Shown: positions 37,358-61,487, numbered from the stretch's first letter. The stretch: DNA of 64,000 nt from Patescibacteria group bacterium (GCA_004322205.1 SCSN01000005.1:6642-70641); one strand, 5' to 3'. The notes: generated by a model from the sequence alone, not told the origin. Made by a program: numbers and translations.

Positions 37358-37919
37358 AAACACAGATAACCCACTTCAAAGCATTTGATATCCTGCACAC
37401 TTGACCCCGTAGTAGTCCCGCTTTGCGGGATCACTACGGGTTGATTTCATGAAACAGGGTGAAGTTTATGTCTAGCACATTGGTTCGCACATTTCCCCAT
37501 AAGAATCGACGCGTTAGTACGCCTCGGCTCAACCCATTACTGGGCTTACACCTGGCGCCTATCAACGTGGTCATCTCCCACGGGTCTCAACGATTCCTAA
37601 TCTTGGGGCTGGCTTCCCTCTTAGATGCTTTCAGAGGTTATCCAAACCGAACTTAGCTACTCTGCGGTGCCCTTGGCAGGAACAGCAGATACACCAGAGG
37701 TTCGTTCTCTTCGGTCCTCTCGTACTAGAAGAGACCCCCCTCAAGAATCAACGCCTGCAGTAGATAGGAGACCAACCTGTCTCACGACGGTCTGAACCCA
37801 GCTCACGTAACTTTTTAATTGGCGAACAGCCAAACCCTTGGGAGCTTCTTCACCCCCAGGATAAGTTGAGCCGACATCGAGGTGCCGAACTCCGCCGTCG
37901 CTGTGGACGCTTGGGCGGA

Positions 37920-37953
<34 letters not shown>

Positions 37954-38438
37954 ATAATCTCCGGCCGCCTCTAACGCGGACCGTCGGTTCACTTGGCTCT
38001 GCTTTCGCATCTGCTCGGCACGTACGCCTCACAGTTAAGCCGGCTTGTGCCCATACACTATCGGCACGGTTTCCATTCGCGCCTAGCCGACCTTAATAGA
38101 CTCCTCCGTTACTCTTTAGGAGGATAGCGCCCCACTAAAACTGCCCACCAGATACTGTCTCTCGCCGTTTTTGCCGGCGAGGTTCAGAGCGCACATTTCA
38201 CAAGAATGGTATTTCACTGACGACTCCGGGTCGCCCGAGAGCGACCTTTCAAAGTCTCCCATCTATGCTACGCATGCAAAACATACACTCAATATCAAGT
38301 TGCAGTAAAGCTCCCGGGGTCTTTTCGTCTAACTGCAGGTAACCGGCATCTTCACCGGTATTGTATTTTCACCGAGCGGATCCCCGAGACAGTTCTCCAG
38401 TCATTACGCCATTCGTGCGCGTCGGAACTTCATGTTCC

Positions 38439-39183
<745 letters not shown>

Positions 39184-39901
39184 CATGCTTTCAGCTCCTC
39201 ATGGTTGCCCATGAGATTGGACTATGTCTTCACCATTTTCTGGTGTCTTGCGTATAGTCTCTGAGGATTCTTCCTTGTACACATCTGATAAAGAGTATGT
39301 ACGTTTTCTACCTCGATCATCGTTGAGCTTTTCACGAAGCTGTAGAATTTCCTTTCTTCCAATGTGATTTAAGTGGTCACCTCGGTACATTTTTTCTACA
39401 ATTTCCTTGAAGATCGAGAAGTTTTTTTTCTTTCGAGCGGAAAGAAAACCAAACCGCTGAAAAAATGGAACGATAATCTCTTGAAGTGATTTTATATTTG
39501 TCACTTCATAATAGATCACCCCATCTTTCCTCTCTCTAAGGGTTCCGCATCCGAGCGTATCTTTTATTTTCGCCAGGATTACACGATCTCTTTGAGATAT
39601 ATTGAACGAAGCGCAAAGTTTCCATTCATCTCGATAATCAAGCCTATGCTTGATTGAGACATTGAAGCTTCCTTCGCCATCAGTGAAGCCCGCAATGTAA
39701 TTGCCAAGAGCTACACCTATATTTTGTATTCCTTTGCTCATAATTTTAAGCAAGGAAGTTTCCTGCTAGTTGTCTGCAATACAGCGTTGTTACTGTGCTT
39801 CGACAGCGCGAGTAGTTGTATTTCTTCACCGCTTCAATTCTAGCGGACAGAGTTTCTAGCATACAGCAAGATTTTTTAACGTAACTACAACGGTCATTCT
39901 C
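39184..39901 (-). mobile_element. Group-I-type intron in 23S after CCGTAACTATA (about E. coli position 1917) carrying a LAGLIDADG homing endonuclease
   Basis: The conserved block CCGTAACTATAACGGTCCTAAGG is split by about 716 nt. The ORF lies inside. Confidence 0.7.
39199..39753 (-). CDS. LAGLIDADG-family homing endonuclease (intact motif)
   Basis: 184 aa. IAGFTDGEGSFNVSIKH LAGLIDADG motif. Homologous to the ORF at 38471-38896. Confidence 0.8.
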   Translation of the reverse strand: MLKIMSKGIQNIGVALGNYIAGFTDGEGSFNVSIKHRLDYRDEWKLCASFNISQRDRVILAKIKDTLGCGTLRERKDGVIYYEVTNIKSLQEIIVPFFQRFGFLSARKKKNFSIFKEIVEKMYRGDHLNHIGRKEILQLREKLNDDRGRKRTYSLSDVYKEESSETIRKTPENGEDIVQSHGQP

Positions 39902-40216
39902 TATAGTTACGGCCGACATTCACCAGGGCTTACAACGGTCAGCCCGCAATCTTGCGATCGCGAACCGCCATCGTTTGACCTTCTGGCATTGGTCAGGCGT
40001 CACCCCCTATACATCCTCTTGCGAGTTCGCAGGGAGCTGTGTTTTTGATAAACAGTTGCCAGAGATACTTTTGTTGCAGCCTCCCACACTCAACCCTCTT
40101 TCAAAAAGAGGGGGCGGTGGAGAAACCAGAGAATGGGCCGCGGCCCAGCATTGTTTCGCTGGTAGCCGATTAACGTGCTTCCCAGTTCACGACTGAATCC
40201 AACATCACATATTTCG

Positions 40217-40248
40217 CATGCGCATGCGAAATATGTGAGAGATCTTCA
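40217..40248. repeat. 32-nt perfect palindrome inside the 23S (another expansion-type insertion)
   Basis: CACATATTTCGCATGCGCATGCGAAATATGTG. Confidence 0.4.
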
Positions 40249-40884
40249 TCAGAATTCATTTCCTGTTTTTTCTCTGGCTCCTCCACTCTTGTGTACATTC
40301 ACTTCCCTAACAAAAGGGCTGAATGTGGGAGGCAAGCCTTATTCCGAGGTTACGGCTGCTTTTTTGCCGAGTTCCTTGGGGATTTCTCACTCGTTCGCCT
40401 TACTCTACTCGAGCAGACCACCTGTGTCGGTTTGCGGTACGGGCTTAATACGTTTAACCTTAGAAGTTTTTCTCGGAAGGCGGCTTGCGCAAATCGACTG
40501 GTCCGAAGACCAACCTTCTTCCCAACTCCTCCGGGCAATACTCTCCGGATTTTCCTAGAGAGCACCCTCGAGCCAGGAACGATAATCCAATAAATCGCTC
40601 GCGTTACTCACCTTCGTCACTCCATCGAAACGCATCAAGGTCACGGAATATTAACCGTGTGTCCATCGGCTGCGGCTTTCGCCATTGCCTTAGGCCCGAC
40701 TAACCCTTGGTTGATTGACATTGCCAAGGAAACCTTGGTCTTGCGGCGGGCCGCGTTCTCAGCGGCCTTGCGGTTACTTGTGCCAACATTCTTCCTTCGC
40801 AACGCTCCACCCCGACTTACGTCGTGGGCTTCACGGCAGATGCGAATACTCTCCTACCACGCTCGCGCGCAGCGCGAGCAAGTC

Positions 40885-40975
40885 AAAAGTTGAAAGTCTA
40901 TAAAGTCTCTAAAGCAAATTTTTTGAATTCACTTTCAGACTTTATGGACTTTATGGAACTTTAAACTTGCTTGTG
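40885..40975. repeat. Palindromic AAAGTC/GACTTTATG-repeat hairpin insertion in 23S (copy B)
   Basis: AAGTCAAAAGTTGAAAGTCTATAAAGTCTCTAAAG...CACTTTCAGACTTTATGGACTTTATGGAACTTTAAACTTGCTT. Confidence 0.55.
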
Positions 40976-41056
40976 CTACGCACAAGCATCCTCAATTTCG
41001 GTACCACGCTTAAGCCCCGATTATCTTCGGCGCAGAGTCTCTATCTGAGTGAGCTG

Positions 41057-41099
<43 letters not shown>

Positions 41100-41644
41100 C
41101 AGTGTCAGAGAAACTCCACCACCTTACGTGCACTGAGCATGGATTTAGGGACCTTAAGTTGAGATGCGGGCTGTTTCCCTTTTGACCAATGGAGCTTAGC
41201 CCCCACGGTCTAACTGCCGCGCTTTTACCCGGAGTATTCGGAGTTTGATAGGTCTGGCGAGCTTTCGCCCTGTCCAGACCTTCCAGTGCTCTACCCCTCC
41301 GGGGAACACGCGACGCAAGCCCAAAAGCTTTTTCGGAGAGAACCAGCTATTACCAAGTTCGATTAGCTTTTCACTTCTTATCACAAGTCATCCGAGAGTT
41401 TTGCACAGCTCACCGGTTCGGGCCTCCTCCCCGCTTTCGCGGGGATTCACCCTGCTCATGACAAGCTCACTTGGCTTCGGGTCTGATGCTATACCTCATC
41501 CGCCGATTGGCGGATCGCCCTGTTCAGACTCGCTTTCGCTATGCCTCCAGGGACAAACCCCTTAGACAAAGGTGTAGCATCAACTCGTTGGCTCATTCTT
41601 CAATAGGCACGCCGTTGCGGACATCACGCAAAGTATGATGTCCG

Positions 41645-41735
41645 CAAGTCTGTAAAGTCAAAAGTCAAAAGTCAAAAGTTAGGAACAAGTGCTCCGACTT
41701 TATGGACTTTATGACTTTATGGACTTTTAACTTGC
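41645..41735. repeat. Palindromic AAAGTC/GACTTTATG-repeat hairpin insertion in 23S (copy C)
   Basis: CCGCAAGTCTGTAAAGTCAAAAGTCAAAAGTCAAAAGTTAGG...CCGACTTTATGGACTTTATGACTTTATGGACTTTTAACTTGCGG. Confidence 0.55.
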
Positions 41736-41817
41736 GGCATCACACACTGTGTGATGCCCGCTTCGACTCCTTGTAGACATATGGTTTCAGGTCTATTTCA
41801 CCGCCCTCACCGGGCTG

Positions 41818-41857
<40 letters not shown>

Positions 41858-43176
41858 TCTAAAAGTATTTAGCCTTGCCGGTTAGTTCCGGCAGATTCCC
41901 CCGAGCCACTCGTGTCTCGAGGTACTCAAGAACAGTAACAGAAGAGATGTTTCATTTTCACGTACGGGACTGTTACCCTCTTGGGTCGAGCGTTCCAGCT
42001 CGTTTTGTTAATGAAACACTTTGTAACTCTTTTCCCTCACTAACTCTGCTACCAAGAGTGCCTGGGCACTGCTTCGGAACAAAGTTAGTGAGGGGTGTTA
42101 CCGCCTTACTACCCCCACCTACGCTCCTTGCTTCCCAGCAAGAAGCTTCGGTGGGCACAGCCCAGCAACTGGTGCTGAGCTTGCCCGGCCGAAGTTCTTT
42201 GCGAAGCAAAGAACGGAGGCGGGTTTGGGCTTCTTCCTTTTCGCTCGCCGCTACTAAGGAAATTCTAGTTGGTTTCTTTTCCTCCAGGTACTGAAATGTT
42301 TTACTTCCCTGGGTTTACACGTAGGCATCTAAGTCCTACATTCCCGACGCGAAGTCAGGAGGGTTTCCCCATTCGGAGATCTCCGGATCAAAGGTTGCTA
42401 GGCACCTCCCCGAAGCGTATCGCCGCCACGCCGCGTCCTTCATCGCCTTTTAGAGCCAAGGCATCCACCATACGCCCTTACATTTCCTATGAGGAAATGT
42501 ACGAACCGCTTACCCGAATCATTTTTGCTACGCAAAAATGATTCGGGCTTTTACTTCATCCCGTACCAACTTTGCAACTGAACTACGGCGCGAAGTGCGA
42601 GTGGCAAGTAGCCACATTCTTCTTCACGGCGCAGCGCTTCGCCCATCGAGGGAGGCACTATTCGTGCACGCACTGCGCAAAATAACTTCAGAAGCAAAAT
42701 TGGTACGGGGCTTCACCCTGTTTCATGAAATCAATTCATACAACAGGATTTTTCCCGTACGAAATCGGTTATCCTTGATAACCGTAGTTTTTTGTACGGG
42801 ACCTGCGTCCCGCCCATATTCATGGGCGGGACAAGCTTGCCTTCAAACGAAGACCCCCTTACCCGCAATCCGCCGGCTGGCGGAGCGGGAGAGAAACGTT
42901 TGCGACAAGCATTTAGTTGTCAAAGAGCCGACCCATTGACGTTCAGAAACGAAAATCGCCGCTCTCAAAGCGGCGACAGGTAACACACTTAGACACGGTG
43001 CTACCATTTCCGCTTTGAGAAAAGATTGCGAAGATACGTCATACAGGTGCACACTTAGTATAGTCAAGCCAAAAAAGCTGTCAAATTAGCTGGGGAAAAC
43101 AAACAGCCCCCCGTGAGATGTCGCGCTCTACGCGCTATCTCACGGGAGGCTGTCTTATCCCAAATTACAGCGTATC

Positions 43177-49446: not shown

Positions 49447-49490
49447 TTGGGCACAATTTTGTCAAACGAAAACGGGCTCCCTAGGGAGCC
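49447..49490 (-). terminator. Conserved terminator unit, copy 1: 18-nt perfect palindrome GGGCTCCCTAGGGAGCCC plus TTTTCGTTTGACAA
   Basis: 34 of 34 nt identical to the unit at 50648-50690. The stop codon (TAG) of the upstream gene sits in the hairpin loop. Confidence 0.55.
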
Positions 49491-50137
49491 CGCTGCGGCG
49501 TGGGGCGCAACCGCCGATACCTAAACCAGAGCAGGATAATCGCGGTGAGCACCACCAACGTCGGCGGATTGATGATCTGGAGAGGCACGTTGCCGGCAGC
49601 ATAAGCGTAGATCGTCCAGAACAAAGTCGAGACGAAGAATACGCTAACGTAGTTGATGTCAACCGCCCCAGGGTCACGAGCCTGCCAGAGTTCATACAAC
49701 TGGTGGGCCACAGCCAGCAGTCCTCCGGCAAAGGCCGCGGTCATTAACGTATCCTTCCAAGGCAGAATGATCATGCCCAGCGGAATGAGAGGAAGAATCT
49801 TCACCAATCTCCTCTCATTTTTCGAAAACCCCTTGTGCCTCCAGAGACCAAAGAGTACCTGGAGATAGAGGATTCCGAGCAGACCGTTAATGACGGGTGC
49901 AATGCTGTTAGTCACGATCCCATAGTAGAGAAACGTGAAGAACAGACTGCACAGGTAGGAGAACAGTGGAACCGACACTGCCTTGCCGGACTCCATCTGC
50001 TGAATTGTGTTCTTCTGCTTGACGAGGCTCCAGCCAGACAGAATGGTGAAGAAGACTGTTGCGATGAAGCTGATGGTTACAACATTCAAGTCCCAGTTTC
50101 TCCACTCTACGCTTTCCCGCAGCCACTGTTCGATCAA
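49481..50137 (-). CDS. Polytopic membrane protein (6-7 TM helices), possibly PnuC/PQ-loop/SWEET-superfamily-like
   Basis: 218 aa. Hydrophobic pattern and W/Y-rich loops (LQVLFGLWRHKG, NVPLQIINPP) give a weak resemblance to PnuC-type transporters. Confidence 0.5.
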   Translation of the reverse strand: MIEQWLRESVEWRNWDLNVVTISFIATVFFTILSGWSLVKQKNTIQQMESGKAVSVPLFSYLCSLFFTFLYYGIVTNSIAPVINGLLGILYLQVLFGLWRHKGFSKNERRLVKILPLIPLGMIILPWKDTLMTAAFAGGLLAVAHQLYELWQARDPGAVDINYVSVFFVSTLFWTIYAYAAGNVPLQIINPPTLVVLTAIILLWFRYRRLRPTPQRAP

Positions 50138-50281: not shown

Positions 50282-50638
50282 CTAAAACGGCAAATTGTCG
50301 TCATCCTCGTCATTTCCTGTAGGCAACAGATGCCTAGGGAGAGACTCGGCGTTCCGTGGAATTTCGGGAAGTGAGACATGCGCTGGAAACGCTCCGGCTT
50401 GCACTCCTCGCGGGAACCAGTGGAGGTTGTCTTCTGTGGGAATGGTCTCCTCCCAAACCCCGCCCTTCATCTCAACCGACACATGAAAGACGGAAGTTCT
50501 TGGAATAAGCGGGATTTCGTATCTCCTGATGACGATGTTGATAGAATCCAGGACTACTCCTGCTCCTCCTCCGCCGCCCATATAAACCTCGCAGCTTGGG
50601 TTGACGTTGACGAGAACACTCCAAAACCAACCTATCAC
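50282..50638 (-). CDS. Hypothetical 118-aa protein ending in an SSB-like acidic tail (NDEDDDNLPF)
   Basis: The C-terminus ...DEDDDNLPF* mimics the conserved SSB C-terminal tip DDDIPF. The rest of the sequence is not OB-fold-like by eye. Confidence 0.4.
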   Translation of the reverse strand: MIGWFWSVLVNVNPSCEVYMGGGGGAGVVLDSINIVIRRYEIPLIPRTSVFHVSVEMKGGVWEETIPTEDNLHWFPRGVQAGAFPAHVSLPEIPRNAESLPRHLLPTGNDEDDDNLPF

Positions 50639-50647
50639 CCGTCAGAA

Positions 50648-50690
50648 GTTTGTCAAACGAAAACGGGCTCCCTAGGGAGCCCGTTGCGCA
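50648..50690 (-). terminator. Conserved terminator unit, copy 2 (identical hairpin plus TTTTCGTTTGACAA)
   Basis: TTTGTCAAACGAAAACGGGCTCCCTAGGGAGCCCGTTGCG on the plus strand. Confidence 0.55.
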
Positions 50691-50697
50691 ATCAAGC

Positions 50698-51072
50698 CTA
50701 ATGAATTCTCCGCCGAGGGTCAGGCAGTTCCTCATTGTCGAGCTTGATAGCCAGAGCAAGAACGAGAAGAGCATTTCTCACTCTGGGGCTTCTGCCGCCG
50801 CCAATGAGAGGTACTCTAAAGCGGTGAGTGAAGTGTCGGTCGCCGGATTCCGGGTCAATGTCCGAAATGATGTCAATCCAGCCATCACTGTCCTGGCTGA
50901 AGCTGACTCCAAGAGTGCTGTCGAGGCCGTCGGTGTCGTCGCTCCTGCGCCTGTAGATAATGTTCGGCTGGAGCGCCGAGAGCCAGAAGTGGCCCTCGAG
51001 CAAGAGCTTCGCAAGCTCGTCCGGATATCGCTTCACCAACTTCCGCAGTCGATTCAGGGTTCTCTTGTCTGC
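50698..51072 (-). CDS. Hypothetical protein of about 125 aa (start taken at the internal Met MPADKRTLNRL)
   Basis: ORF only. A charged N-terminal helix (RLRKLVKRYPDELAKLLLEGH). No family assigned. Confidence 0.35.
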   Translation of the reverse strand, partial: ADKRTLNRLRKLVKRYPDELAKLLLEGHFWLSALQPNIIYRRRSDDTDGLDSTLGVSFSQDSDGWIDIISDIDPESGDRHFTHRFRVPLIGGGRSPRVRNALLVLALAIKLDNEELPDPRRRIH

Positions 51073-51261
51073 GGGCATCTCACACGCTCCTACGAAAATG
51101 AAGAAGCGGGTCTTCCGACAGACTATCACCGTAAACAGAACTTGCAAACTACTCCTTTATTCTAATGTTCTCAAGAACATTAGAATAAGACAACAAAATG
51201 GTGAAAATAGAGATGTTCAGTAAAACACCTTGCGTTTCTTGTACAGTTTTCATAAAGAACC

Positions 51262-51305
51262 TCGCCCCAAGGGGGACTAGGCATTAGGAGCCCCCTTGGG
51301 GCGAA
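51262..51305. terminator. Long GC-rich inverted repeat / terminator-like hairpin at the boundary between the GC-rich segment and the AT-rich island
   Basis: AAAGAACCTCGCCCCAAGGGGG-ACTAGGCATTAGGAG-CCCCCTTGGGGCGAACCGGGGTGTTCTTT. Confidence 0.4.
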
Positions 51306-51911
51306 CCGGGGTGTTCTTTGTTGTGGAAGCGCGAAACTCCGCTCGCAACGGATTATTATGCGGCCATCCATCCCCGGCCGCCCAGCCTTCGCAGCCGAAG
51401 CGGCTGCTTCGGCAGAGTAGGCCAAGCAGACGGGGTATTCTGGCCGCTTACAATAAAAACCAACGCCCACTCGGAGAGTGGGCGTGCGTTGCGCGCAGTT
51501 ATGCCAAACCACAGGAGGAGCAATGGGCGAGGATGATGGACAGTATCATGAGTATGACCATGATAATGTTCAGCACCAACCCTCCCCACTTCAGGAACCG
51601 ATTAGCAGAACGACTGCTTCCAATCACGAGAACAATCTCCTCACTGGGAGATATCTTAACGATAGCTCGACGACATGAGCCGACGATATGCATAATCAAC
51701 CTGTTCTCGCGAAAGCTACAATCCGTCCTGCGGTGGTGCATGTGCCCTCCTTCGGGCAGTTGAAAGGTACACGCTGTCTTCTGCCCACACCAAACAGTGG
51801 GACCGGACAGCACAAGGAATCATACCAGAACTTTGAGAAGATACTGTGAATAACAAATTTCTTAGAAAAGACGTTATAGTGTCATGAAGGTGTTTTGCTG
51901 ATTAGGAAAGA

Positions 51912-52247
51912 TCACCAAAACAATTTTTCTAACTCGCTTGAAGCAAGTAAAAACGACCTGTAGGTAAAGTAACCCAAAATAAAATCACCAATTATCACAA
52001 AGAGAAAAACTCTCGTTCTTTTTCTCACAACCTGATCTCGGTTACCCAAGAACCCGATTAAAGCAAGTGTTAAATCTACTGCAACAAAATAGATACCTGC
52101 CTTCCAAAGAACATACGACGGCAAATACGAATTAAACAACGAAGAGACGCCTAGAATTGCAACGAATCCTAACAACAAAAAAACAGATAAATGAAAAATG
52201 GTGGTTCGAGGTCTCATTGAATATTTATAAATTATCCAACAACCCAT
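51912..52247 (-). CDS. Small multi-TM membrane protein (array member 4)
   Basis: About 100 aa with 3 TM helices. Preceded by a cassette-repeat remnant (...VEMLNGLLDNL*). Confidence 0.45.
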   Translation of the reverse strand: MGCWIIYKYSMRPRTTIFHLSVFLLLGFVAILGVSSLFNSYLPSYVLWKAGIYFVAVDLTLALIGFLGNRDQVVRKRTRVFLFVIIGDFILGYFTYRSFLLASSELEKLFW

Positions 52248-52290
52248 TCAACATTTCAACTAAGAGCATCTTAGCGGCCAGATCAAAAAA
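52215..52290. repeat. Cassette repeat, copy 1 (shortest remnant)
   Basis: TTTATAAATTATCCAACAACCCATTCAACATTTCAACTAA... matches the 3' ~45 nt of the copies at 52912 and 53342. Confidence 0.5.
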
Positions 52291-52460
52291 CATTGTGCTT
52301 CGGGTACGGCAATGTCTCCTCACTAAAACAACATTCTCACGCTCCTAGGAACGTGAGAATGTTGTCAGATGCGCAAAGAGCAACACTCTGCTCTCCGATC
52401 CAGAGCGAGCGATTATTTACAGCAATAGTGTAGTCTTAATGCATTCTCTACTTTAAACAC

Positions 52461-52907
52461 TTATCTATCATCCTCAAAGTTTCGAGACTTAAGAGACCTG
52501 AACCTCCAAATTTGAGCAACGTATAGAACCACGGTAGATATAACAGATAAGATAAATAAGCCCTTGGCAAGTAGTTGAGTGTTGGCGATTCGATCACACG
52601 GAATTGCCCAAGCACTACAATAAACAGGTGATTGAAATATCAGAAACACAGAAACAGCAACAGCCGCAGATAGTATTGTTATCCATATTTTAAAAAACAT
52701 CCCTCGCAGAAAGAACCCTACGACTATGGAAATGGCCAAAAAACGCAAGTAAATCTCCAGAGGCTCTAACACTGTTGGTCCCAACAAGTACAAAGTCAGA
52801 TTATAACCACCCACATGAGAGTAAGTAAGTAATATATAGAATAACAGAGCTATTATGAAAAATGTTAGTACAAATTTTTTTTCTTTCGTCTTAGGCATAT
52901 TAACCAT
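52461..52907 (-). CDS. Small multi-TM membrane protein (array member 3)
   Basis: 148 aa with 4 TM helices. Preceded by a cassette-repeat remnant with no start codon. Confidence 0.45.
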   Translation of the reverse strand: MVNMPKTKEKKFVLTFFIIALLFYILLTYSHVGGYNLTLYLLGPTVLEPLEIYLRFLAISIVVGFFLRGMFFKIWITILSAAVAVSVFLIFQSPVYCSAWAIPCDRIANTQLLAKGLFILSVISTVVLYVAQIWRFRSLKSRNFEDDR

Positions 52908-52911
52908 TATT

Positions 52912-53045
52912 TAAATTATCCAACAATCTATTTAACATTTCAACTAAAACCGCTTTATCCGCATCACCAATTTGAGATGGCTTTTTCTCCCGAATGGAGG
53001 AGATAAGTTTGCTGATTAGAGATTTAGCGTCTTCTCTTGCTTTTC
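52912..53045. repeat. Cassette repeat, copy 2 (about 130 nt, about 90% identical to copy 3, lacks a start codon)
   Basis: TATTTAAATTATCCAACAATCTATTTAACATTTCAACTAAAACCGCTTTATCCGCATCACCAATTTGAGATGGCTTTTTCTCCCGAATGGAGGAGATAAGTTTGCTGATTAGAGATTTAGCGTCTTC. Confidence 0.55.
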
Positions 53046-53050
53046 GTGGC

Positions 53051-53350
53051 TTACCAAATCTGAAAATCTTGCAAGCTTTTATACGTTACAGCGACCAAAA
53101 CAACGCCTGATAAAACCAGGAAAACAGATAGGAAAAGCAAATGATATAACTCATTGGAAAGTATTTGATATTTAACGTTTAACTTCAGAATGCGAATGAC
53201 CAGTAGAAAAATCAACACAAGAAGACCAAGGGGGAGTAAGAAAAGTATCGGACCATACAACCAAGACGCTGGCTCAACGAAACCAAGCAAGATGACAAAA
53301 AAAGCTGAAGCCAATTCAAAAAAGAATAGTGCCTTGAGTATCTTATGCAT
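53051..53350 (-). CDS. Small multi-TM membrane protein (array member 2)
   Basis: 99 aa with 3 TM helices. Follows the intact 67-aa partner gene. Confidence 0.45.
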   Translation of the reverse strand: MHKILKALFFFELASAFFVILLGFVEPASWLYGPILFLLPLGLLVLIFLLVIRILKLNVKYQILSNELYHLLFLSVFLVLSGVVLVAVTYKSLQDFQIW

Positions 53351-53480
53351 TTATTGATTTCTATAAATTATCTAACAATTTATAGAACATTTCAACTAAA
53401 ACTGTTTTATCCGCATCGCTAATTTGGGATGGTTTTTTCTCCCGAATGGATGAGATAAGCCGACTGATTAGAGATTTAGC
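53342..53480. repeat. Cassette repeat, copy 3 (intact; 3' part of the 67-aa gene plus downstream flank)
   Basis: TTTATTGATTTCTATAAATTATCTAACAATTTATAGAACATTTCAACTAAAACTGTTTTATCCGCATCGCTAATTTGGGATGGTTTTTTCTCCCGAATGGATGAGATAAGCCGACTGATTAGAGATTTAGCATCCTC. Confidence 0.55.
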
Positions 53481-53564
53481 ATCCTCGTTTTTACCTTGCG
53501 TACAAAACGTACACAGATTGGAGTCAGGTAGACTTTGTTTTTGCAATAATTTGCCTGAGAACAA
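53361..53564 (-). CDS. Small soluble 67-aa protein whose C-terminal ~40 codons and 3'-flank form the repeated cassette
   Basis: MFSGKLLQKQSLPDSNLCTFCTQGKNEDAKSLISRLISSIREKKPSQISDADKTVLVEMFYKLLDNL. The remnants at 52912-53045 and 52215-52290 encode ...DAKSLISKLISSIREKKPSQIGDADKAVLVEMLNRLLDNL and ...KMLLVEMLNGLLDNL. Confidence 0.45.
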   Translation of the reverse strand: MFSGKLLQKQSLPDSNLCTFCTQGKNEDAKSLISRLISSIREKKPSQISDADKTVLVEMFYKLLDNL

Positions 53565-53910
53565 TACCTAGGGTAAGAGCAACGATTAGCACCAATACAT
53601 AGAACCAAAGATGCTTAATAAAATAGGGGTCGAAGCTGATTAAATAAATGAGCGGCAGAATAAGTAAAATTCCAAGAATTACATAATCCGTCTTTTTTGC
53701 TAAATAGGAAAGAAACAACGTGCTGAAAAAAATAAACGCGGGAGCTATGCCGGAAAAATATTCAGAAGCGTCTGGTCCAATCCAACCGCCCCCACACTCA
53801 AAGTTAAGACAGAACAATTTTCCAAAAATAAGAGACGTATAATGTGAAAAGATTAATATTAAAATAACTCCTATAATTCTAATAAACGCTTCCATATTAA
53901 TGATTATCAA
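53524..53910 (-). CDS. Small multi-TM membrane protein (array member 1), start overlapping the lipase gene stop
   Basis: 128 aa with 4 TM helices. Confidence 0.45.
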   Translation of the reverse strand: MIIINMEAFIRIIGVILILIFSHYTSLIFGKLFCLNFECGGGWIGPDASEYFSGIAPAFIFFSTLFLSYLAKKTDYVILGILLILPLIYLISFDPYFIKHLWFYVLVLIVALTLGIVLRQIIAKTKST

Positions 53911-56561
53911 TTATTAATTAACCATTCAATGTCTTCTTTGATTAAATTATACGCCCGCTCATTAATTTTGTCCTTTTCATAGAGTTTTAAATCCAAAATA
54001 AGGGCTTTGAGTAATTTTTTATCAATCTTTTTTCCTGATTTTGCCGAATTAACCTTTTTAATCAGGGCATCTCTGCTCTTTTTGTCTTTTATCCAGCCCA
54101 AATGATAAGACCTGTTTATATCAGATATTGTGCTATCAATCGTTGCAATAATATTAAAGTTTACCGATGATCTTGACATATTGAAGAACATATCAAAAGC
54201 CGAAGCGGAAACAAAATGTTCCCCCAATTCTTCAAAAAACAAATCAATTGAGATATTACTACTAGTCGGCTTATCATCAAAAAGTATCGTTGATGAAGCA
54301 ATCCCTGAATTATCATCAGAAATGTTTACATCAATTGATAATGTTTCTGATCTCAAGTAATCTTTGTGGGTTGGCGAATTAATAGAAACTAAAGGAGAAG
54401 TGGTGTCTTCCGGAATTGCTTTAAGAGGAACCTCCTTGTCTGAATCTATGCCTAATAAAATGTTTTGAATTAGCTGCGGCTCTGTTATTCCTAGAATATC
54501 TTCTTCAGCGGATTTCTCCCCATCAAAATATCCCATTGCTAATGTGTACTCTCCACTTCCTGTTCCCTGAACTTGAACCATATATTCGCCATCAAGCGGA
54601 TTTGGTATTGAAACAAATTCACTGTCGGTGAGAAAGCCAGAATAAAAGGCGCCTAGAACTTCATTAATTTCCTGCCCTGTTGTGAAGTCTTTGCCGACTT
54701 TTTTGCCGTCCGGTGCAATTACCAAAATATCTGCCGGGGAGAGAACCTTTATAATAATTGATTTGAAGTTCGGCACGTTTGGATTGTCAATAATAATTGT
54801 GGCATTTCGACCGGTGAGTCTATTGAATACTAAATCACTGAACTGTTCTGGCAATCTCGAATGTTTTACATCTCTTAGTACAACATCTAATACTGGCATG
54901 CTGTCGGAACTTACTATTGGTACAGTTTTATCACCTTGGACTCTCTCCAACCCATTGTCAGAAGAATTAGAGTCTTTAAATCCATCGGGGTACCCGTCTT
55001 CCCACATTGGAGAAGTGCTAGCCGCAACAACTCTTATTGTGCCAATTGTATCTGCTCCCGTATTTCCGATAAAATTGGAAATTTTTACACCAGAATTTAG
55101 CAAAGAATTGGTATTTGCCGAAAGCGCTTCGAGGAAATTATTTATTGGATATCCAAGAGGATAATTCCTTAACTGATTTGAACTCTTATCCTTCAAATAA
55201 TCGTAAATTGGTAATAATTCTTGGATAGATACGACTGGCTTATTTCTTACATAATCAAAAATAGATTGATAATTACTTTTCTGCGCTTCCCTAAGAAAAA
55301 AGAACTTTTTTACACTATCAAAAACATCTCTTATATCAATTTCTCCCCCTTCCCATGTTAAGTAGGCCTCGGGGGCCCCTAAGTGCGGGGTGCCGAGAAA
55401 TATCAATTGGCCAACATCTCCTTGATACTTGCTTGACTGAATATACTCGCGCGCGATCAGACCACCCATTGAATGCGCAACTAAGTCAACCTTTGCGCAC
55501 TGGCAGGTATTTTTTACTTCGTCAATTTTAAAACGAAGATTAATGGCATTAACCACATTAGACAATCTCCAGTCGTAGGGAAACGTAAAGAGATTTTGAT
55601 CATTGGCATAACCATTTGCCTTCAAAGTGTCGAGAAGGTCGTCGTATGTATGTAAAACAGGATCGATGACCCACGCCCCGCTCTTTAGCTGTGAACCAAG
55701 AAGGCCGGGGATGATAATCACAGGATCTAATTTAGTTTGTTGCCCCGGGGGTGCGCCGAGCCAAGGGATAAAATCTATTCTTTCCGAAATTGGTTGTCCG
55801 AGACCGTTAGGATTAACAATGGGATTACTTGGACCCGTAGGATCACCCCACCAACTGAACCTTGCATCGGCTTGAGTGGCGCCGGAGTTATTGTAGGCAA
55901 CAACGTTCCGCTCAAAAGAAGAATGGGTCGCGCTTGAACTACCCACCTCAATAAAAATCCCTGCGTCGTTGTCAGTAAAAGTAGAACCAGTGATATCTAT
56001 ACTCCCGGTGTTCTCTCTCACGGCAGCAAAACCGTTAAAGGAAAACGTGCTTGTACTCACAGTCACTAAACCGCCTTCATTGAAAAGGGCGCCCAATTCG
56101 CTGACAAAGATATTTGGAGTGATACCTCCTCCATATTCGAACACGAGATTATTCAGAACACCTTGAGAGCCTGAATAAAATCGAACTCCATGAAAATCGT
56201 TTTTCTGTGGGAAAGTCGCGCTTCCGTCCCCGTTCGAATCCCCTCCAACCGAGTCATCCCTTACAGAAGTAAAGTGAACTGGTTCCGCCGCCGTGCCATT
56301 AACAACAAGTTGGCCGAAAACATGTATTCTGCCATTGTCTGTAACACCGCGCCCAAATTTCACAACTGTGCCCGGATCAATAGTTAGAGTTGCACCGGGA
56401 AAAATCGAAAAAAATATATCACCCAGAATCAAATACGGGTCATTTGTCTTTGTCCAGGTCGTATCAACTGTTATATCTTGCTGAACTAGAGTGGCGGCTA
56501 GAGTGTTTCTAGCTGCGAGAAGTGCCAACAACACAAAGCCGACAAGAAAAACTCTTTTCAC
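53907..56561 (-). CDS. Secreted 884-aa protein with an N-terminal right-handed beta-helix-like region and a central LCAT/PGAP1-like alpha/beta-hydrolase (lipase/acyltransferase) domain; GTG start
   Basis: Signal peptide MKRVFLVGFVLLALLAARNTLA. G/N/T/S-rich beta-helix-like repeats at residues 60-260. Lipase core: PVIIIPGLLGS...YDWRLS...VDLVAHSMGGLIAREYI (GxSxG)...FLGTPHLGA. Long C-terminal region with a K-rich tail. Confidence 0.7.
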   Translation of the reverse strand: MKRVFLVGFVLLALLAARNTLAATLVQQDITVDTTWTKTNDPYLILGDIFFSIFPGATLTIDPGTVVKFGRGVTDNGRIHVFGQLVVNGTAAEPVHFTSVRDDSVGGDSNGDGSATFPQKNDFHGVRFYSGSQGVLNNLVFEYGGGITPNIFVSELGALFNEGGLVTVSTSTFSFNGFAAVRENTGSIDITGSTFTDNDAGIFIEVGSSSATHSSFERNVVAYNNSGATQADARFSWWGDPTGPSNPIVNPNGLGQPISERIDFIPWLGAPPGQQTKLDPVIIIPGLLGSQLKSGAWVIDPVLHTYDDLLDTLKANGYANDQNLFTFPYDWRLSNVVNAINLRFKIDEVKNTCQCAKVDLVAHSMGGLIAREYIQSSKYQGDVGQLIFLGTPHLGAPEAYLTWEGGEIDIRDVFDSVKKFFFLREAQKSNYQSIFDYVRNKPVVSIQELLPIYDYLKDKSSNQLRNYPLGYPINNFLEALSANTNSLLNSGVKISNFIGNTGADTIGTIRVVAASTSPMWEDGYPDGFKDSNSSDNGLERVQGDKTVPIVSSDSMPVLDVVLRDVKHSRLPEQFSDLVFNRLTGRNATIIIDNPNVPNFKSIIIKVLSPADILVIAPDGKKVGKDFTTGQEINEVLGAFYSGFLTDSEFVSIPNPLDGEYMVQVQGTGSGEYTLAMGYFDGEKSAEEDILGITEPQLIQNILLGIDSDKEVPLKAIPEDTTSPLVSINSPTHKDYLRSETLSIDVNISDDNSGIASSTILFDDKPTSSNISIDLFFEELGEHFVSASAFDMFFNMSRSSVNFNIIATIDSTISDINRSYHLGWIKDKKSRDALIKKVNSAKSGKKIDKKLLKALILDLKLYEKDKINERAYNLIKEDIEWLINN

Positions 56562-56563
56562 GA

Positions 56564-57916
56564 TTAGCGAAAAATACTTTTAAAGAATGCAATGATTTTG
56601 CTCCAAAATCCTTTCGGCCGCTCAACCACATAGACATTCGCCGCCGCCGCGGTTTGGTCTTCTTGCGGCTCGACTTCAGACAGCTGGGGAGCTTGGCTTA
56701 CAAGTTCCGCATTGTCGCTATCCTTCTTCGCAGTCTTCTGCTTGCTGTCCGCTGCCAGCTCTTGCCGAACACTGTCTTCTTCTTTCACCTTGGGTTCTGC
56801 CGCTTGCGTCACACGGTATGCGTATTCTGCTCCAAGGGGGTAAAAAATTTTAACAACCGACCCCGGGACGAGCGCAAAACCAGTCACTTCAGAGCCGAGA
56901 GTGAGTTTTCCTTTCCCAACAAGAATAGTATCTCGCGGAAAAACAAACGTTTTACCATCTGCCAAAAGTTTCCACTCCTGCAAGTTGATTTCGTGGCTGG
57001 AGAGATTGCGAATTTCAAGCAACCCGCTGGACAGAACCGAAACAGCAAGTTCCGGCTCTACCACTTTAATATTCACCCGATCGGTTGCTCGTTCATCGCC
57101 GTTTGAGACATTCAAGACCGCCACATAATCGCCCGGGTAGCGATAGTTGTAGCTGACTTCCTGACCGTATTTTATTGACCCGTCACCGAGCGACCAGGTA
57201 AATACACCGCCGCGGGTTCTCTGCGAACTTTTAATTTCCCCCCGAAGAATGACGACACTGCCCACCGCTGTTAGCCGATCCTTGCCGGCATCGACAACAA
57301 AGGAATCTGTCTGCTCTGATTCAGACGTGGCGGCCTGCGAAGTTTGAGTTTGAGATGAAGAGTCAGATGAACTCGACGAGGTCTGCGTCTGGCCTGAACC
57401 GGAAGAGCTCTGTGTGCCGCCAGCCGATGCACCTGCGCTGGCGCCCTGCCCCGGGGTTGGAGTTCCTGCTGTCAAATTTCCTCCCGAGCGGTGAAGCGAG
57501 TTGCCGTCTCCGGCCGCTCCGAGCGATGAAGAATACGAAATTGTATCCCGATCTGTGCCCGCCTCATCCCGAAGGACAAGTGTCTCGCCGGTATTTCCGA
57601 GGCTAAAAGAGCTGTCAAACAAAATCCCGGAGAAGTTTGGCCAATCGAGGAGAAACTTGGCGCTGTTATCAGCTATCACCGCATACTCACCGGCGCCAAG
57701 TGTTGCATTCCCCTGAACAATATTAAGAGTATGATTGGTATTTCCCTCAAAAAATCTCCATTGCGAGAGATCGACAGCGGAAGAGCCTTGGTTTTGAACT
57801 TCAACCCATTCGCGGTCGGTGTCGGTGCCGGAGAGATCGTACATAATCTCGGAAATGACAACCTGCGCAGAGAGGGGGAGCGGAAGAAGAAAGAGAACGG
57901 GCAGAAGTTTTTTCAT
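56564..57916 (-). CDS. Secreted lamin-tail-domain (LTD) protein with an S/T/Q-rich linker and C-terminal beta-rich domains
   Basis: Signal peptide MKKLLPVLFLLPLPLSAQ. LTD signature VVISEIMYDLSGTDTDREWVEVQNQGSSAVDLSQWRF...GEYAVIADN. Linker GGTQSSSGSGQTQTSSSSSDSSSQTQTSQ. Confidence 0.7.
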   Translation of the reverse strand: MKKLLPVLFLLPLPLSAQVVISEIMYDLSGTDTDREWVEVQNQGSSAVDLSQWRFFEGNTNHTLNIVQGNATLGAGEYAVIADNSAKFLLDWPNFSGILFDSSFSLGNTGETLVLRDEAGTDRDTISYSSSLGAAGDGNSLHRSGGNLTAGTPTPGQGASAGASAGGTQSSSGSGQTQTSSSSSDSSSQTQTSQAATSESEQTDSFVVDAGKDRLTAVGSVVILRGEIKSSQRTRGGVFTWSLGDGSIKYGQEVSYNYRYPGDYVAVLNVSNGDERATDRVNIKVVEPELAVSVLSSGLLEIRNLSSHEINLQEWKLLADGKTFVFPRDTILVGKGKLTLGSEVTGFALVPGSVVKIFYPLGAEYAYRVTQAAEPKVKEEDSVRQELAADSKQKTAKKDSDNAELVSQAPQLSEVEPQEDQTAAAANVYVVERPKGFWSKIIAFFKSIFR

Positions 57917-57922
57917 ATCCGG

Positions 57923-58093
57923 CTATTGATTCGTTGTGCCTTGACGAGCCTCAACGTATGAGCTTTCAGGCGGAAGGATTTGATTCTTCTGGCCGGCATA
58001 TTTGGTTAGGAGAAGAATAATGAGACTGACGGCGAGAATGGCAAGAAAACCAAAGAGGAACTTGAAAAATGTCTTGTCAAAATAGCGAAGCAT
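57923..58093 (-). CDS. Possible 56-aa single-TM protein upstream of the LTD gene
   Basis: MLRYFDKTFFKFLFGFLAILAVSLIILLLTKYAGQKNQILPPESSYVEARQGTTNQ, found by eye; under the 60-aa ORF-track cutoff. Confidence 0.25.
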   Translation of the reverse strand: MLRYFDKTFFKFLFGFLAILAVSLIILLLTKYAGQKNQILPPESSYVEARQGTTNQ

Positions 58094-58123
58094 AAAGCCA
58101 TCCTAGCATTTTTTGCGCAAAAC

Positions 58124-58150
58124 GAAAACCCCCGCAATGCGGGGGTTTTC
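58124..58150 (-). terminator. Bidirectional rho-independent terminator
   Basis: AAAACCCCCGCAATGCGGGGGTTTT. Confidence 0.6.
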
Positions 58151-58190
58151 GCAACCAGCTAGCTTACGCTAGCTCGAGAGTCTGCTTGCT

Positions 58191-60155
58191 TTACGGCAAG
58201 GTAACTCCTGCTGTTCTCCAGCTTGACTTACCCGCCATGAAGTTCGATGTTGACGAACCTGCCGGGCCAACCCATCGGATTGATTCAAGACCAACCGTAT
58301 AGGATCCCGTCGGGAAGAGAGCACCGGAAACATGACGGCCTTCAACTGTGAAGGATACCGGCAAGTCAATCGAGTTGCCTTCTGACAGAGTCCATGATTC
58401 GGTCAGACCGGCTGTCACCACACCTGAAGCAGGTGTCGTGTAGTCAGTCGAGGAAGCAGCAAGCGATGATGTCGCAACGCTGTTTTGGTAGAGATCAAAG
58501 CGTCCGCTGCCGCCATTGGCACTAATGGTTGTAGTACCAACCAATGGGCTTGTAGAAGCCACCGTACCGAACATAACATCTGCACCGACTGCCTTAATGC
58601 GAAGCGTAAATGTCGCTTTGGCAGTTGAGGTTGAGACATTATTCTGCGATGCAGTTGCACTCTTCTCAATTGTCTTAGAAAGAAGAGTGAATTCAGCGCC
58701 AGTATTTCTGACAGTAACTCGCTCTCCCGTCGTTGATCCCGTTTTGGTGATCGTGCCACCGGTTGAGCTCTCGGCGGTAATACCAGTACTTGATGCCCAG
58801 ATTTCAAAGATAGCCGGGTTGCCTTGAGCATCGCGGATATCTAGTTTGACTGTCAGTGGCTTTGTCGTGTCTTTAGGAACGACGTAGTCAATGTCATCGA
58901 AGAGAGCATCCATTCCTCCGGCAACTGCCGAGGAAGAAATAGCTGCGCTTCCGACAAGAGTGCTACCATCGTAGAGATAGGCAGTGGTGGCTGTTGCTGT
59001 CGAGGCCCCGACTGTCACGCTCTTAAGCACTTGGACATGCATATCTACAATCTTGATGCTGTCCTTTTCCGCCTTGAGGTCGAAAATGGCAGCGTCCATT
59101 TTGTCATACTCGTCTTCAGTAGTACCCTGGCTTGCAACTACTTCACGAATCACTGGACTTGCGCTGTTCAGAGAAATAATCAGGTTTGCGCTGTCCGTAA
59201 GTGAAGCGGCGGTCGTCACGTCATTGCTGAATGCTGTGCTTGGGCTCTTCTGGTCAATGTTGGCGCCGTCAAGAGCTCGAACGCCGTCAACGGGCAGAGT
59301 CAGAGTCCAGGTGTGCTGATCAGCGGCCTTGATTGTAGCCATCATATCCATAGCAACAGTCAGGATCCTCTTCGTGTTCTTAGGTACTATCCAGCTGAAG
59401 CCGGTAATCTGAACGAAGTAATTTGAGCCCTCTTTGAAGACGGTGCTCGAATTAAGGTCAGATTGGGCTACAACTGTTGAACCATCCATAAGATAAACTC
59501 TTGAGAATATCTTAGTGTAGGTAGTCGTGGTAGTACCAATGTTGAGCTTGACTCTCTGGACCGCAAGGTCTGAGTTCTTAGCTTCAATCTCTAGACCCAA
59601 GACTGCTACCTTTGTTTCACCCTCGCGAATGGTTATGCCAGAGCTTGGAGAAGGATTCTTACTTACGGTAAGAGTACCTTCAATTCCAGGCGTGGTGATT
59701 CCCGCTGGCGGAGTGGTCGGAGTCGTGGGTGTCGTTGGGGTCGGACCTGCCATCGAGCTGTATTTTGCTCGAGAGATGGAACCGAAGTACCCCGCGGCCG
59801 GAGAAACTCCATTTGCCGCCTGCCAAGCTGCAACTGCTGCCTTGGTTATGCTTCCAAAGTAACCAGTTGCTCCGCCGGAAAAGGTGAAGTGCCCAGTACC
59901 CGTCAGATAATTCTGAAGGCAGGTTACGTCAGCCCCGCGTGAACCCATGGTGAGGTCACCCGTGAATGAACATGAACCAGCACTCCCACCGCCCGTAACA
60001 AGTCCTTGAAGGAGGGTGGCTTGTGAGCCAGTCAACCCAAGAACTTGGATGATGGCATTTACTTCGGCTTGAGTAAGTGCCTTTGCTGGGGTAGCGCCAC
60101 CGACGAGAGCCAAAGCTAACGCCAGTGCCGCAAAACCCATAATAAATCTACTCAT
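58191..60155 (-). CDS. Secreted cell-surface protein: signal peptide, peptidoglycan-binding (PG_binding_1-like) domain, TP-rich linker and a large Ig/beta-sandwich-like T/S-rich region
   Basis: MSRFIMGFAALALALALVGGATPAKA. GSRGADVTCLQNYL...GYFGSITKAAVAAWQAANGV (PG_binding_1 pattern). PTPTTPTTPTTPP linker. Confidence 0.6.
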   Translation of the reverse strand: MSRFIMGFAALALALALVGGATPAKALTQAEVNAIIQVLGLTGSQATLLQGLVTGGGSAGSCSFTGDLTMGSRGADVTCLQNYLTGTGHFTFSGGATGYFGSITKAAVAAWQAANGVSPAAGYFGSISRAKYSSMAGPTPTTPTTPTTPPAGITTPGIEGTLTVSKNPSPSSGITIREGETKVAVLGLEIEAKNSDLAVQRVKLNIGTTTTTYTKIFSRVYLMDGSTVVAQSDLNSSTVFKEGSNYFVQITGFSWIVPKNTKRILTVAMDMMATIKAADQHTWTLTLPVDGVRALDGANIDQKSPSTAFSNDVTTAASLTDSANLIISLNSASPVIREVVASQGTTEDEYDKMDAAIFDLKAEKDSIKIVDMHVQVLKSVTVGASTATATTAYLYDGSTLVGSAAISSSAVAGGMDALFDDIDYVVPKDTTKPLTVKLDIRDAQGNPAIFEIWASSTGITAESSTGGTITKTGSTTGERVTVRNTGAEFTLLSKTIEKSATASQNNVSTSTAKATFTLRIKAVGADVMFGTVASTSPLVGTTTISANGGSGRFDLYQNSVATSSLAASSTDYTTPASGVVTAGLTESWTLSEGNSIDLPVSFTVEGRHVSGALFPTGSYTVGLESIRWVGPAGSSTSNFMAGKSSWRTAGVTLP

Positions 60156-60602: not shown

Positions 60603-61487
60603 TCAAGAAAGGCTATATCGAGTCCAACGGCGCTCTCCCCTTTTTTTAATAATTCCCTCCGAAACCAAGGAAAGAAGCTCTCTCTGAAGAGTTTTTTCAC
60701 TGCAGTTTTTTACGAGCTCGCTCACATCTTTAACCGTAACCTCCTTTTTTCTCTTAAGAAGGCTGACAATGGCGCTTCTGCGCGCATTTCTCTTTATTGT
60801 TATGGCGCCCAAATTTGTGAGTGCCTGTCCCCGCGCGGCTATTTTAGCCTGCGACTCGCGGTCGCTAGCCTCTGGCACCGCAGGTCGTTCTAAAGGACTT
60901 TTTAAAAATGTCCTTGAAGATCCGTCTGTAAATTGACTTGCGGTTTCCTCTCTTTCTAATGTAGCGCTTGCCGCCTCAAGTTGAGGTGACAGGCGAAAGA
61001 AATCATCTCGGATCAAAGAACGCGAGAACTCGGGCTTCCGAGACGAGCTTGCCAGCCGGAATCGCTCCTCCAAATGGCTTAAGAGAGCCAGTAATTCACG
61101 AGTTAAAATCTCTGCGCTCTCGACAGAGAACAAACCAGAAGTTTTGCCGACTTCCAGAAGCGAGATGAGTTCAGAAACCGTCGGCTGGATACCTTCTTCA
61201 TAGGCGGAGCTTCCGCCCGGCAGACTGTGAAGAAACCCGATACAAAAGGACAAAAGCCGAGAGGAAAGCGAGCGGAAAATCCATTTCATGGGCTCACTGT
61301 CGGCAAAAAAATTTGTCAGGAGATAGAACGCTTCAGTTATTCTCTCCGTCTTTTTCAAAATGAAAAAGACGTTTTTGTCTTTTAGATATGGGAATGAAAT
61401 CAAGTGATTCTCTTGTGTAGCAACAGATTTCTTGTCGTTCTGTCTCTGACCAGATTGGTCTTTGTCCTTTTTAACTTCATCCCCCAT
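60603..61487 (-). CDS. Hypothetical protein with a C-terminal winged-helix (DeoR/MarR-like) DNA-binding domain
   Basis: 294 aa. The C-terminus SAIVSLLKRKKEVTVKDVSELVKNCSEKTLQRELLSLVSEGIIKKRGERRWTRYSL is a wHTH pattern. Divergent from ftsK. Confidence 0.45.
   Translation of the reverse strand: MGDEVKKDKDQSGQRQNDKKSVATQENHLISFPYLKDKNVFFILKKTERITEAFYLLTNFFADSEPMKWIFRSLSSRLLSFCIGFLHSLPGGSSAYEEGIQPTVSELISLLEVGKTSGLFSVESAEILTRELLALLSHLEERFRLASSSRKPEFSRSLIRDDFFRLSPQLEAASATLEREETASQFTDGSSRTFLKSPLERPAVPEASDRESQAKIAARGQALTNLGAITIKRNARRSAIVSLLKRKKEVTVKDVSELVKNCSEKTLQRELLSLVSEGIIKKRGERRWTRYSLS

Follow-up and report, generated by a model that had tools for sequence, protein, structure and literature searches.

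We analysed a 64,000-nucleotide (nt) stretch of DNA (hereafter, the window) from a metagenome-assembled genome of the Patescibacteria, or candidate phyla radiation (CPR), and focused on a minus-strand gene cluster at 51850-58160 built around a secreted lipase. In the direction of transcription, the cluster comprises a 56-amino-acid (aa) peptide with a single transmembrane (TM) segment (TM56), a 450-aa secreted protein with lamin-tail-domain (LTD) stretches (LTD450), the 884-aa lipase, a small membrane protein whose start codon overlaps the lipase stop codon (M128), and three further small membrane-protein genes (M99, M148 and M111), each preceded by a copy of one repeat (R1, R2 and R3). An earlier interpretation made from the DNA alone (the sequence-only reading) had listed these minus-strand open reading frames (ORFs), all of which are present, and had taken the cluster for an AT-rich island that might couple an effector to an array of immunity-like genes. 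Comparison with related loci showed that the first four genes, TM56, LTD450, the lipase and M128, are conserved among CPR and appear to form a vertically inherited module, and only the three cassettes of repeat plus membrane gene look lineage-specific.

The lipase (53907-56561, minus strand) is identical to the NCBI entry 'hypothetical protein EPN83_00850 [Patescibacteria group bacterium]'. It scored above the cut-offs of two Pfam models, LCAT (PF02450; 7e-18, 65.4 bits against a cut-off of 21) and PGAP1 (PF07819; 6e-10, 39.7 bits against 24.3), confirming the LCAT/PGAP1-type lipase proposed earlier. Pfam matches, an alignment of homologues and an AlphaFold2 model with a mean pLDDT of 81.5 divide the protein into a Sec-type signal peptide (aa 1-23), consistent with the secretion that had been proposed, a beta-helix (~25-260), an LCAT/PGAP1-type alpha/beta hydrolase domain (~278-590), beta-sandwich domains (~600-805) and a four-helix C-terminal domain (808-884; 53910-54140). 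The N-terminal domain is beta-rich in the model, and homologues carry Beta_helix/NosD Pfam matches. The candidate nucleophile, Ser364 (codon 55470..55472, minus strand), lies in an AHSMGG motif (residues 362-367, at 55461-55478), and the other candidate triad residues are Asp544 (codon 54930-54932) and His567 (codon 54861-54863), both on the minus strand. All three residues were invariant in an alignment of 26 homologues, and in the model each lies just after a strand in the canonical alpha/beta-hydrolase order, so that the active-site check raised by the sequence-only reading returned an intact predicted triad. Alignment and model together support the assignment of the 884-aa protein as a Sec-secreted LCAT/PGAP1-type lipase with an intact triad.

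The structural neighbours of the lipase are BlEst2 (a Bacillus lipase), LCAT, LPLA2 and family I lipases (1ex9, 2es4 and 9g8u). The best solved-structure match by sequence was 4r1d_A, with 33.9 bits to the lipase profile around the nucleophile elbow; this entry is Tle4, a lipase effector of the type VI secretion system (T6SS). More than 625 relatives were found, essentially all in CPR, the best at 40-57% identity. Against the closest relative (P0002), identity was ~30% in residues 1-275 and ~68-70% from 276 to 884, and the family consensus is kept to the last residue (...INxQAYxLLKEDINWLLNN), leaving the N-terminal beta-helix as the variable part. A chimeric origin of the lipase was considered and rejected: the switch in identity to P0002 falls at ~residue 275, at the beta-helix boundary, and the drop in GC falls near codon 400.

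M128 (53524-53910, minus strand) is predicted to span the membrane four times and begins with a TTG that overlaps the lipase stop codon (an alternative ATG lies at 53895). Across ~90 related loci fetched for comparison, the lipase gene is followed by one small gene, overlapping or a few bases away, with no Pfam match. We defined a CPR lipase-partner 4-TM family, represented by a profile built from 65 sequences. A profile search placed a gene of this family next to the lipase in 73 loci, from a set of about 80 related ones. This adjacency, together with the overlapping start and stop codons, bears out the proposal that the lipase is coupled to a small polytopic membrane-protein gene. M128, directly 3' of the lipase, belongs to the family (67.6 bits; HHalign probability 98.9%), whereas M99, M148 and M111 fall outside it (hidden Markov model scores at most 1.3 bits; HHalign probabilities < 2%). 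What the sequence-only reading had grouped as one set of four different membrane genes is thus one conserved single-copy partner and three genes from outside its family.

Partner proteins are 115-135 aa long, with ~4 TM segments and very short loops; no charged residue is invariant among them, and the best-conserved positions are Gly, Phe, Trp and a Pro. A search for a curated family of the partner found none, and the comparison with known immunity families that had been suggested earlier returned no match in Pfam, NCBIfam or defence libraries for the partner or the other locus genes scanned. The partner is adjacent in 60 of the 61 lipases that have the canonical C-terminal helical domain, and missing in 6 of the 12 that do not (Fisher p 3.5e-5, uncorrected for phylogeny). 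Two of these six partnerless lipases (in loci L005 and L008) end in a hydrophobic helix of their own followed by a basic tail, which amounts to a membrane anchor in cis. The co-occurrence with the C-terminal domain, combined with four TM segments, short loops and the lack of an invariant charge, favours docking or retention of the lipase over steric inhibition of its active site, so the partner would serve to dock or retain the enzyme, possibly with self-protection in addition. Partner-bearing lipases in L135, L147 and L149 end in a different helical C-terminus (...LQIKLIxCLKxLISLYMLLLNK) and not in the canonical ...LLKEDINWLINN tail.

The two genes upstream of the lipase also have relatives in lipase loci. 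TM56 (57923-58093, minus strand) represents a conserved family in which the motif MRYFDKxFFKFxLGF, at the N-terminus, precedes a TM helix. Eighteen family members occur in lipase loci, among them L123 (702-854 and 6079-6222), and in L121, L122 and L148 the peptide, no longer a separate tiny gene, forms the N-terminal anchor of a fused LTD/PKD protein (9612-10961 in L121 and L122; 2065-2871 in L148); TM56 may be a lineage-specific signal anchor or sorting signal. LTD450 (56564-57916, minus strand) contains two LTD stretches (Pfam LTD, 1.1e-23), in agreement with the lamin-tail-domain secreted protein described earlier, and additionally a PKD domain (PKD_4, 1.7e-10). Its homologues lie beside lipase-partner pairs in L109, L121-123, L129, L130, L148, L149, L163 and L164, and relatives of TM56 and LTD450 adjoin the pair in ~16 loci, in the order of the window in some and as lipase-partner-TM56-LTD in others. 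Farther upstream, the window encodes a 654-aa secreted protein with an N-terminal PG_binding_1 domain (58191-60155) and a helix-turn-helix (HTH)-like protein of 294 aa (60603-61487). These PG-binding and HTH-like genes recur in the same order, at ~42% identity, in seven loci (L109, L121, L122, L130, L149, L163 and L164), a synteny seen in a sub-clade that points to a larger envelope gene cluster. The pair conserved in 73 loci, the adjoining TM56 and LTD relatives and the upstream synteny together indicate that the first four genes constitute a module rather than an island.

Base composition led to the same view. The sequence-only reading had given ~37% GC for all of 51850-58160; the measured value is 41.8%, and ~37% is confined to 51850-55500, with 52% in the LTD gene and 44-50% in the 5' half of the lipase gene. 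Relative to flanking DNA, 42 relatives showed a GC difference of +1.5 points in the lipase 5' half, -3 in the 3' half and -7 in the partner gene. Because relatives share this gradient, low GC is a property of the partner gene and of the 3' half of the lipase gene themselves and gives no evidence of acquisition. We therefore rejected horizontal transfer of an AT-rich island, given the gradient common to the 42 relatives and the upstream synteny in seven loci.

Both hairpins that had been named as boundaries (58124-58150 and 51262-51305) exist. The upstream one, on the minus strand at 58123..58151, has perfect 14-bp arms and a U-run (-28.3 kcal/mol, z -5.0) and is likely the terminator of the upstream PG-binding surface-protein gene, marking the upstream boundary of the module. 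Downstream of M111, a terminator-like hairpin with a U-run lies at 51463..51485 and a second hairpin at 51262-51304, both on the minus strand. That everything in between forms one operon, as had been supposed, is doubtful: a very strong stem-loop with 19-nt arms and UUUU at 52328-52365 (minus strand; -37.6 kcal/mol, z -7.4) looks like an internal terminator after M148, and this hairpin and the promoter-like sites found in every repeat argue against a single transcription unit.

R1 (53341-53486) and R2 (52889-53034) are each 146 nt long and 82% identical to each other, and R3 (52221-52278) is a truncated copy of 58 nt at 74% identity that keeps the reading frame ending in ...LLVEMLNGLLDNL and a stop codon; all three are on the minus strand. 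The repeats that had been proposed before each downstream membrane gene are real. Three copies of a 36-nt core of the repeat lie in the window, where chance would predict none, and an independent assembly of 1,073 nt (L166) matches the R2-M148-R3 segment with 100% identity, which excludes an assembly artefact. The part conserved in all three repeats coincides with a promoter-like TTGAAA-N17-GATAAT (53367-53395 in R1, 52915-52943 in R2 and 52231-52259 in R3), and the -10-like hexamer ends 14-17 nt before the likely start codons, suggesting that each cassette has its own promoter and yields a near-leaderless mRNA.

The 67-aa soluble protein whose C-terminus had been assigned to the repeat did not hold up. 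The corresponding ORF, S67 (53361-53564, minus strand, with its 3' part in R1), has only a TTG start that lies inside M128, R2 keeps the frame with no start codon before codon 49, and the repeat peptide had no homologue in 5.8 billion proteins; S67 is unlikely to be a gene. Copies of the repeat core were found neither in metagenome or viral collections nor elsewhere in the window. R1 and R2 differ at 4, 2 and 11 sites in codon positions 1, 2 and 3, respectively, and this preponderance of third positions suggests a coding past.

The membrane genes of the cassettes, all on the minus strand, are M99 (53051-53350; 99 aa, ~3 TM segments), M148 (52461-52907; ~4 TM segments, with a likely start at ATG 52898 that gives 145 aa) and M111 (51912-52247; ~3 TM segments, with a likely start at ATG 52217 that gives 101 aa). 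M99 is an ORFan that retrieved only itself among 1.84 billion representative proteins, and an exact look-up found nothing on record. The sole database match of M148, also an ORFan, is an identical protein on a 1-kb contig, and M111 had no relative in the loci fetched, the large databases not having been searched for it. The possibility that M99, M148 and M111 are hidden paralogues of M128 or of one another was rejected, with insignificant pairwise scores (z at most 2.5, for M99 against M148). NCBIfam, defence and Rfam libraries and phage genomes yielded no informative matches. The cassette array of the window is for now a single-genome observation.

Similar duplications, at the junction of a gene 3' end and a small membrane gene, occur in a few related loci, where the downstream genes vary in copy number as the sequence-only reading had anticipated, and its further small membrane genes separated by recombinogenic repeats were likewise recovered. 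L117 has three partner-family genes. L127 carries a second module made of a lipase 3' end and a partner (252 nt at 77% identity) behind an IS200-like transposase, the gene for which (Y1_Tnp, 8379-9053) separates the orphan module from the intact pair and has a perfect 60-nt direct repeat (9016-9075 and 9093-9152) on its 3' side. In L145, a similar module (293 nt at 84%) takes in the 3' end of the lipase gene and reaches ~90 nt into the partner gene, the remainder of which has diverged. Of the lipase, both orphan modules cover the C-terminal helical domain only. In L008 (13184-14732), a distant beta-helix lipase ends in a TM anchor of its own, and behind it lie four paralogous genes in tandem, for membrane proteins of 146, 119, 115 and 119 aa with the shared N-terminus MKFISKIQKFFHTDKWWGKT; their first 98 nt are 66-80% identical and their bodies have diverged. 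A conserved junction joined to a fast-diverging membrane-gene body thus appears to be a recurrent theme, of which the window would be the most extreme form. Restriction-modification genes (N6_N4_Mtase, MvaI_BcnI, Eco57I and DpnII) lie directly downstream of the pair in L081 (9805-11362) and L082 (10101-13642), and an ORF at 12738-13883 in L001 looks, by eye, like a type I S subunit. The region 3' of the lipase-partner pair may be a hot spot for variable genes.

Several features of the window lie outside these genes. Between M111 and the next genes, a stretch of 55% GC (51300-51850) is flanked by two terminator-like hairpins and showed no convincing ORF, Rfam match or similarity to related loci; remnants of related genes, sought across 50600-51900, were not found. 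A 46-nt repeat with 93% identity between its copies at 50643-50688 and 49452-49497 flanks an ORF for a 218-aa membrane protein (49481-50137) and contains a palindrome of 22-24 nt (50662-50685). The rRNA genes, at 25389-27687, 36990-37095 and 37493-42494 on the minus strand, have large insertions, the 16S gene extending over 2,299 nt against a model of 1,533 nt and the 23S gene over 5,002 nt against 2,925 nt; the two lie ~10 kb apart with ORFs between them. A match to group II intron D1-D4 was found at 25018-25106 and a tRNA-Ile(GAT) at 23318-23390.

Taking these observations together, we favour, with about even confidence, a surface-lipase module that is conserved in CPR and includes a coupled membrane partner, and to which three locally generated, promoter-bearing ORFan cassettes have been added in this genome. 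The locus would be a vertically inherited cell-envelope gene cluster with a four-gene core that is present in many CPR genomes. By analogy with LCAT and LPLA2, the exported lipase would be a phospholipase A or transacylase that works on membrane lipids at the cell surface, and the variable N-terminal beta-helix would provide contact with the target. The co-translated partner would hold the enzyme at the membrane of the producer through the C-terminal four-helix domain and might also shield that membrane. The cassettes most likely arose by repeated duplication or recombination at the junction of a gene 3' end and a small membrane gene, a view suggested by the duplication of the same junction in L127 and L145, and the promoter-like core of each repeat would drive its cassette as a near-leaderless transcript.

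The enzymatic part of this proposal leans on the likeness to LCAT, LPLA2 and PGAP1, which extends to Pfam models above their cut-offs, an AxSxG-type nucleophile motif, the canonical Ser-Asp-His order and structural neighbourhood. Unlike these enzymes, the window lipase is bacterial and Sec-secreted. Besides the hydrolase domain it has a beta-helix at the N-terminus, two or three beta-sandwich domains and, at the C-terminus, the conserved four-helix domain; a dedicated 4-TM partner is encoded alongside it, and the identity of the lipase to solved structures is only 12-18%. The pairing itself is reminiscent of LipA with Lif/LipB (families I.1 and I.2), in which a secreted lipase gene is followed by a dedicated membrane-protein gene in the same operon and whose lipases are among the structural neighbours (1ex9, 2es4 and 9g8u). 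Lif, at ~300 aa, has a single TM anchor and wraps around the lipase with a large helical domain in the periplasm, whereas partners of the window type have 115-135 aa, four TM segments and almost no exposed loops.

A number of points weigh against the proposed module and cassettes. An interaction between lipase and partner is presumed, and the Fisher statistic for their co-occurrence ignores phylogeny. A partner also accompanies six lipases whose C-termini are of other types, and a mirror-tree comparison of the partner with the C-terminal domain gave no specific co-evolution (partial r 0.08, p 0.08). M99, M148 and, as judged from the loci fetched, M111 are ORFans and lack comparative support. 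Promoter-like matches are common in AT-rich DNA (19 found against 14 expected). The repeat peptide scored at most 9.7 bits against lipase C-terminal profiles, in register from end to end, with shuffle p values from <0.0005 to 0.14 depending on the profile, and a segment database searched at E<10 did not return the repeat; given this weak, profile-dependent resemblance, the idea that the repeat descends from the 3' end of the lipase gene itself is unproven. Finally, the rapid divergence of the duplicated membrane genes fits docking and a role in conflict, that is, immunity, equally well.

Such a role is the core of an effector-immunity explanation, which we regard as unlikely yet deserving of serious weight. 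It holds that the lipase is a membrane toxin directed against other bacteria or a host, that M128 is its cognate immunity protein, and that M99, M148 and M111 are orphan immunity genes gained through recombination at the repeats, which would protect against the lipases of neighbouring strains. The order of toxin and small membrane protein with overlapping stop and start codons agrees with it, as do the downstream membrane genes of L117, L127, L145, L008 and the window, whose copy number varies and whose sequences change quickly beyond a conserved junction. The closest solved structure by sequence, 4r1d_A, which is Tle4 of the Tle4-Tli4 pair, is likewise a PGAP1-like lipase; however, the locus genes scanned had no T6SS match (Pfam, NCBIfam and PADLOC), the window lipase has a Sec signal, and Tli4 is soluble and periplasmic whereas the window partner is a polytopic membrane protein. 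More generally, known lipase immunity proteins are soluble or lipoprotein binders, and the partner is a nearly loop-less 4-TM protein. M99, M148 and M111 are unrelated to M128 and had no relatives where searched, leaving them unmatched to any foreign lipase.

Polymorphic toxin systems, in which variable C-terminal toxin domains are borne on a constant body and toxin-immunity cassettes lie downstream (PMC3482391), offer the layout that the sequence-only reading had invoked. As in the contact-dependent inhibition (CDI) and Rhs systems described there, 3'-end fragments, each with a small gene, are arrayed after a full-length gene, clearly in L127 and L145 and possibly in the window, and the orphan modules of a 3' end and a partner resemble displaced toxin-immunity cassettes (PMC3482391). 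The pattern is nevertheless inverted: the N-terminal beta-helix varies, and across CPR classes conservation is highest in the catalytic core and the C-terminus. The duplicated 3' fragments encode a conserved helical tail and not alternative toxin domains. Standalone toxin-domain cassettes are absent, the window repeats encoding at most a ~45-aa helical tail and no catalytic domain, and searches for trafficking modules (RHS, filamentous and type V, VI and VII secretion systems) gave no Pfam or NCBIfam match, leaving a Sec-type signal peptide and the beta-helix.

A precedent is TslA/TilA of the Staphylococcus aureus type VII secretion system (T7SS), where a lipase toxin is accompanied by immunity genes in a variable array and recombination is promoted by a conserved stretch of ~130 nt (PMC10730906). 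There, too, a lipase with an N-terminal or central catalytic part has a C-terminal helical domain and lies beside small-protein genes in variable copy number (PMC10730906). By contrast, TslA has a polymorphic lipase domain, lacks a Sec signal and depends on the T7SS together with two small helical partners, TlaA1 and TlaA2, whereas the window lipase has a Sec signal and a conserved catalytic domain. TilA proteins are paralogous DUF576 lipoproteins encoded upstream, whereas the window partner is polytopic and encoded downstream and the extra genes are not paralogues; neither small helical partner genes nor DUF576 matches were found at the window locus. The presence of exactly one partner in most genomes and the position of the cluster among syntenic envelope genes also speak against effector and immunity gene.

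The preferred module with its cassettes could also serve a more specific purpose. Lipid synthesis is incomplete in CPR, in which lysolipids are enriched (PMC7242380), and the pair together with TM56 and the LTD/PKD protein could be an apparatus for taking lipids from host membranes, an idea that we put forward as quite unlikely at present. The surface-tethered, LCAT-like phospholipase or transacylase would engage the host envelope via its variable beta-helix, and the lysolipids or acyl chains it makes would enter the symbiont membrane at the 4-TM partner. The cassettes of the window and of L008, L117, L127 and L145 would then be adaptive docking or protection variants tuned to hosts or lipids.

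It is decidedly unlikely, in our judgement, that the region 51900-53520 is the debris of old tandem duplications eroding downstream of the partner gene, with repeats that are pseudo-3' ends and with M99, M148 and M111 as functionless ORFs, fortuitous or degenerating, that are hydrophobic because the strand is T-rich. In favour of debris, no homologues were found for M99, M148 or the repeat peptide, a start codon is missing from R2, and R3 is a truncated copy; the strand, with 46-57% T at second codon positions, by itself gives hydrophobic translations, and the region sits exactly where synteny with relatives ends. However, open frames of 99-148 codons in DNA of ~36% GC have a chance of ~1e-3 to 1e-4 each, as estimated from base composition, and three of them tile the region on one strand with minimal gaps. 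Each frame starts 14-17 nt after a conserved -10-like hexamer, a strong terminator lies exactly between M148 and R3, and R1 and R2 differ mainly at third codon positions. Least probable is a +1 frameshift that would make each repeat the conserved cytoplasmic tail of the preceding membrane protein: no stop interrupts the R1 frame where M128 ends or the R2 frame where M99 ends, and arithmetic on the stop coordinates puts both at +1, but a shared offset in two cases has a ~50% chance, 117 nt including the terminator hairpin separate M148 from R3, and other partner-family members need no such tail.

We found no prior description of the lipase-partner module in the literature searched. Recurrent duplication of the junction between a gene 3' end and a small membrane gene would be an unusual route to membrane-protein diversity and, if the partner is instead an immunity protein, a Sec-dependent lipase toxin system would be widespread in CPR. 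CPR are thought to take lipids from their hosts, and no enzyme has so far been tied to that uptake; the lipase-partner pair, conserved across many CPR lineages, is a worthwhile candidate for it. The pair is present in metagenome-assembled genomes of Saccharibacteria (L003), a group with cultivated, genetically tractable members, and if cultivated strains carry it, the idea that CPR use it to acquire host lipids would be directly testable.

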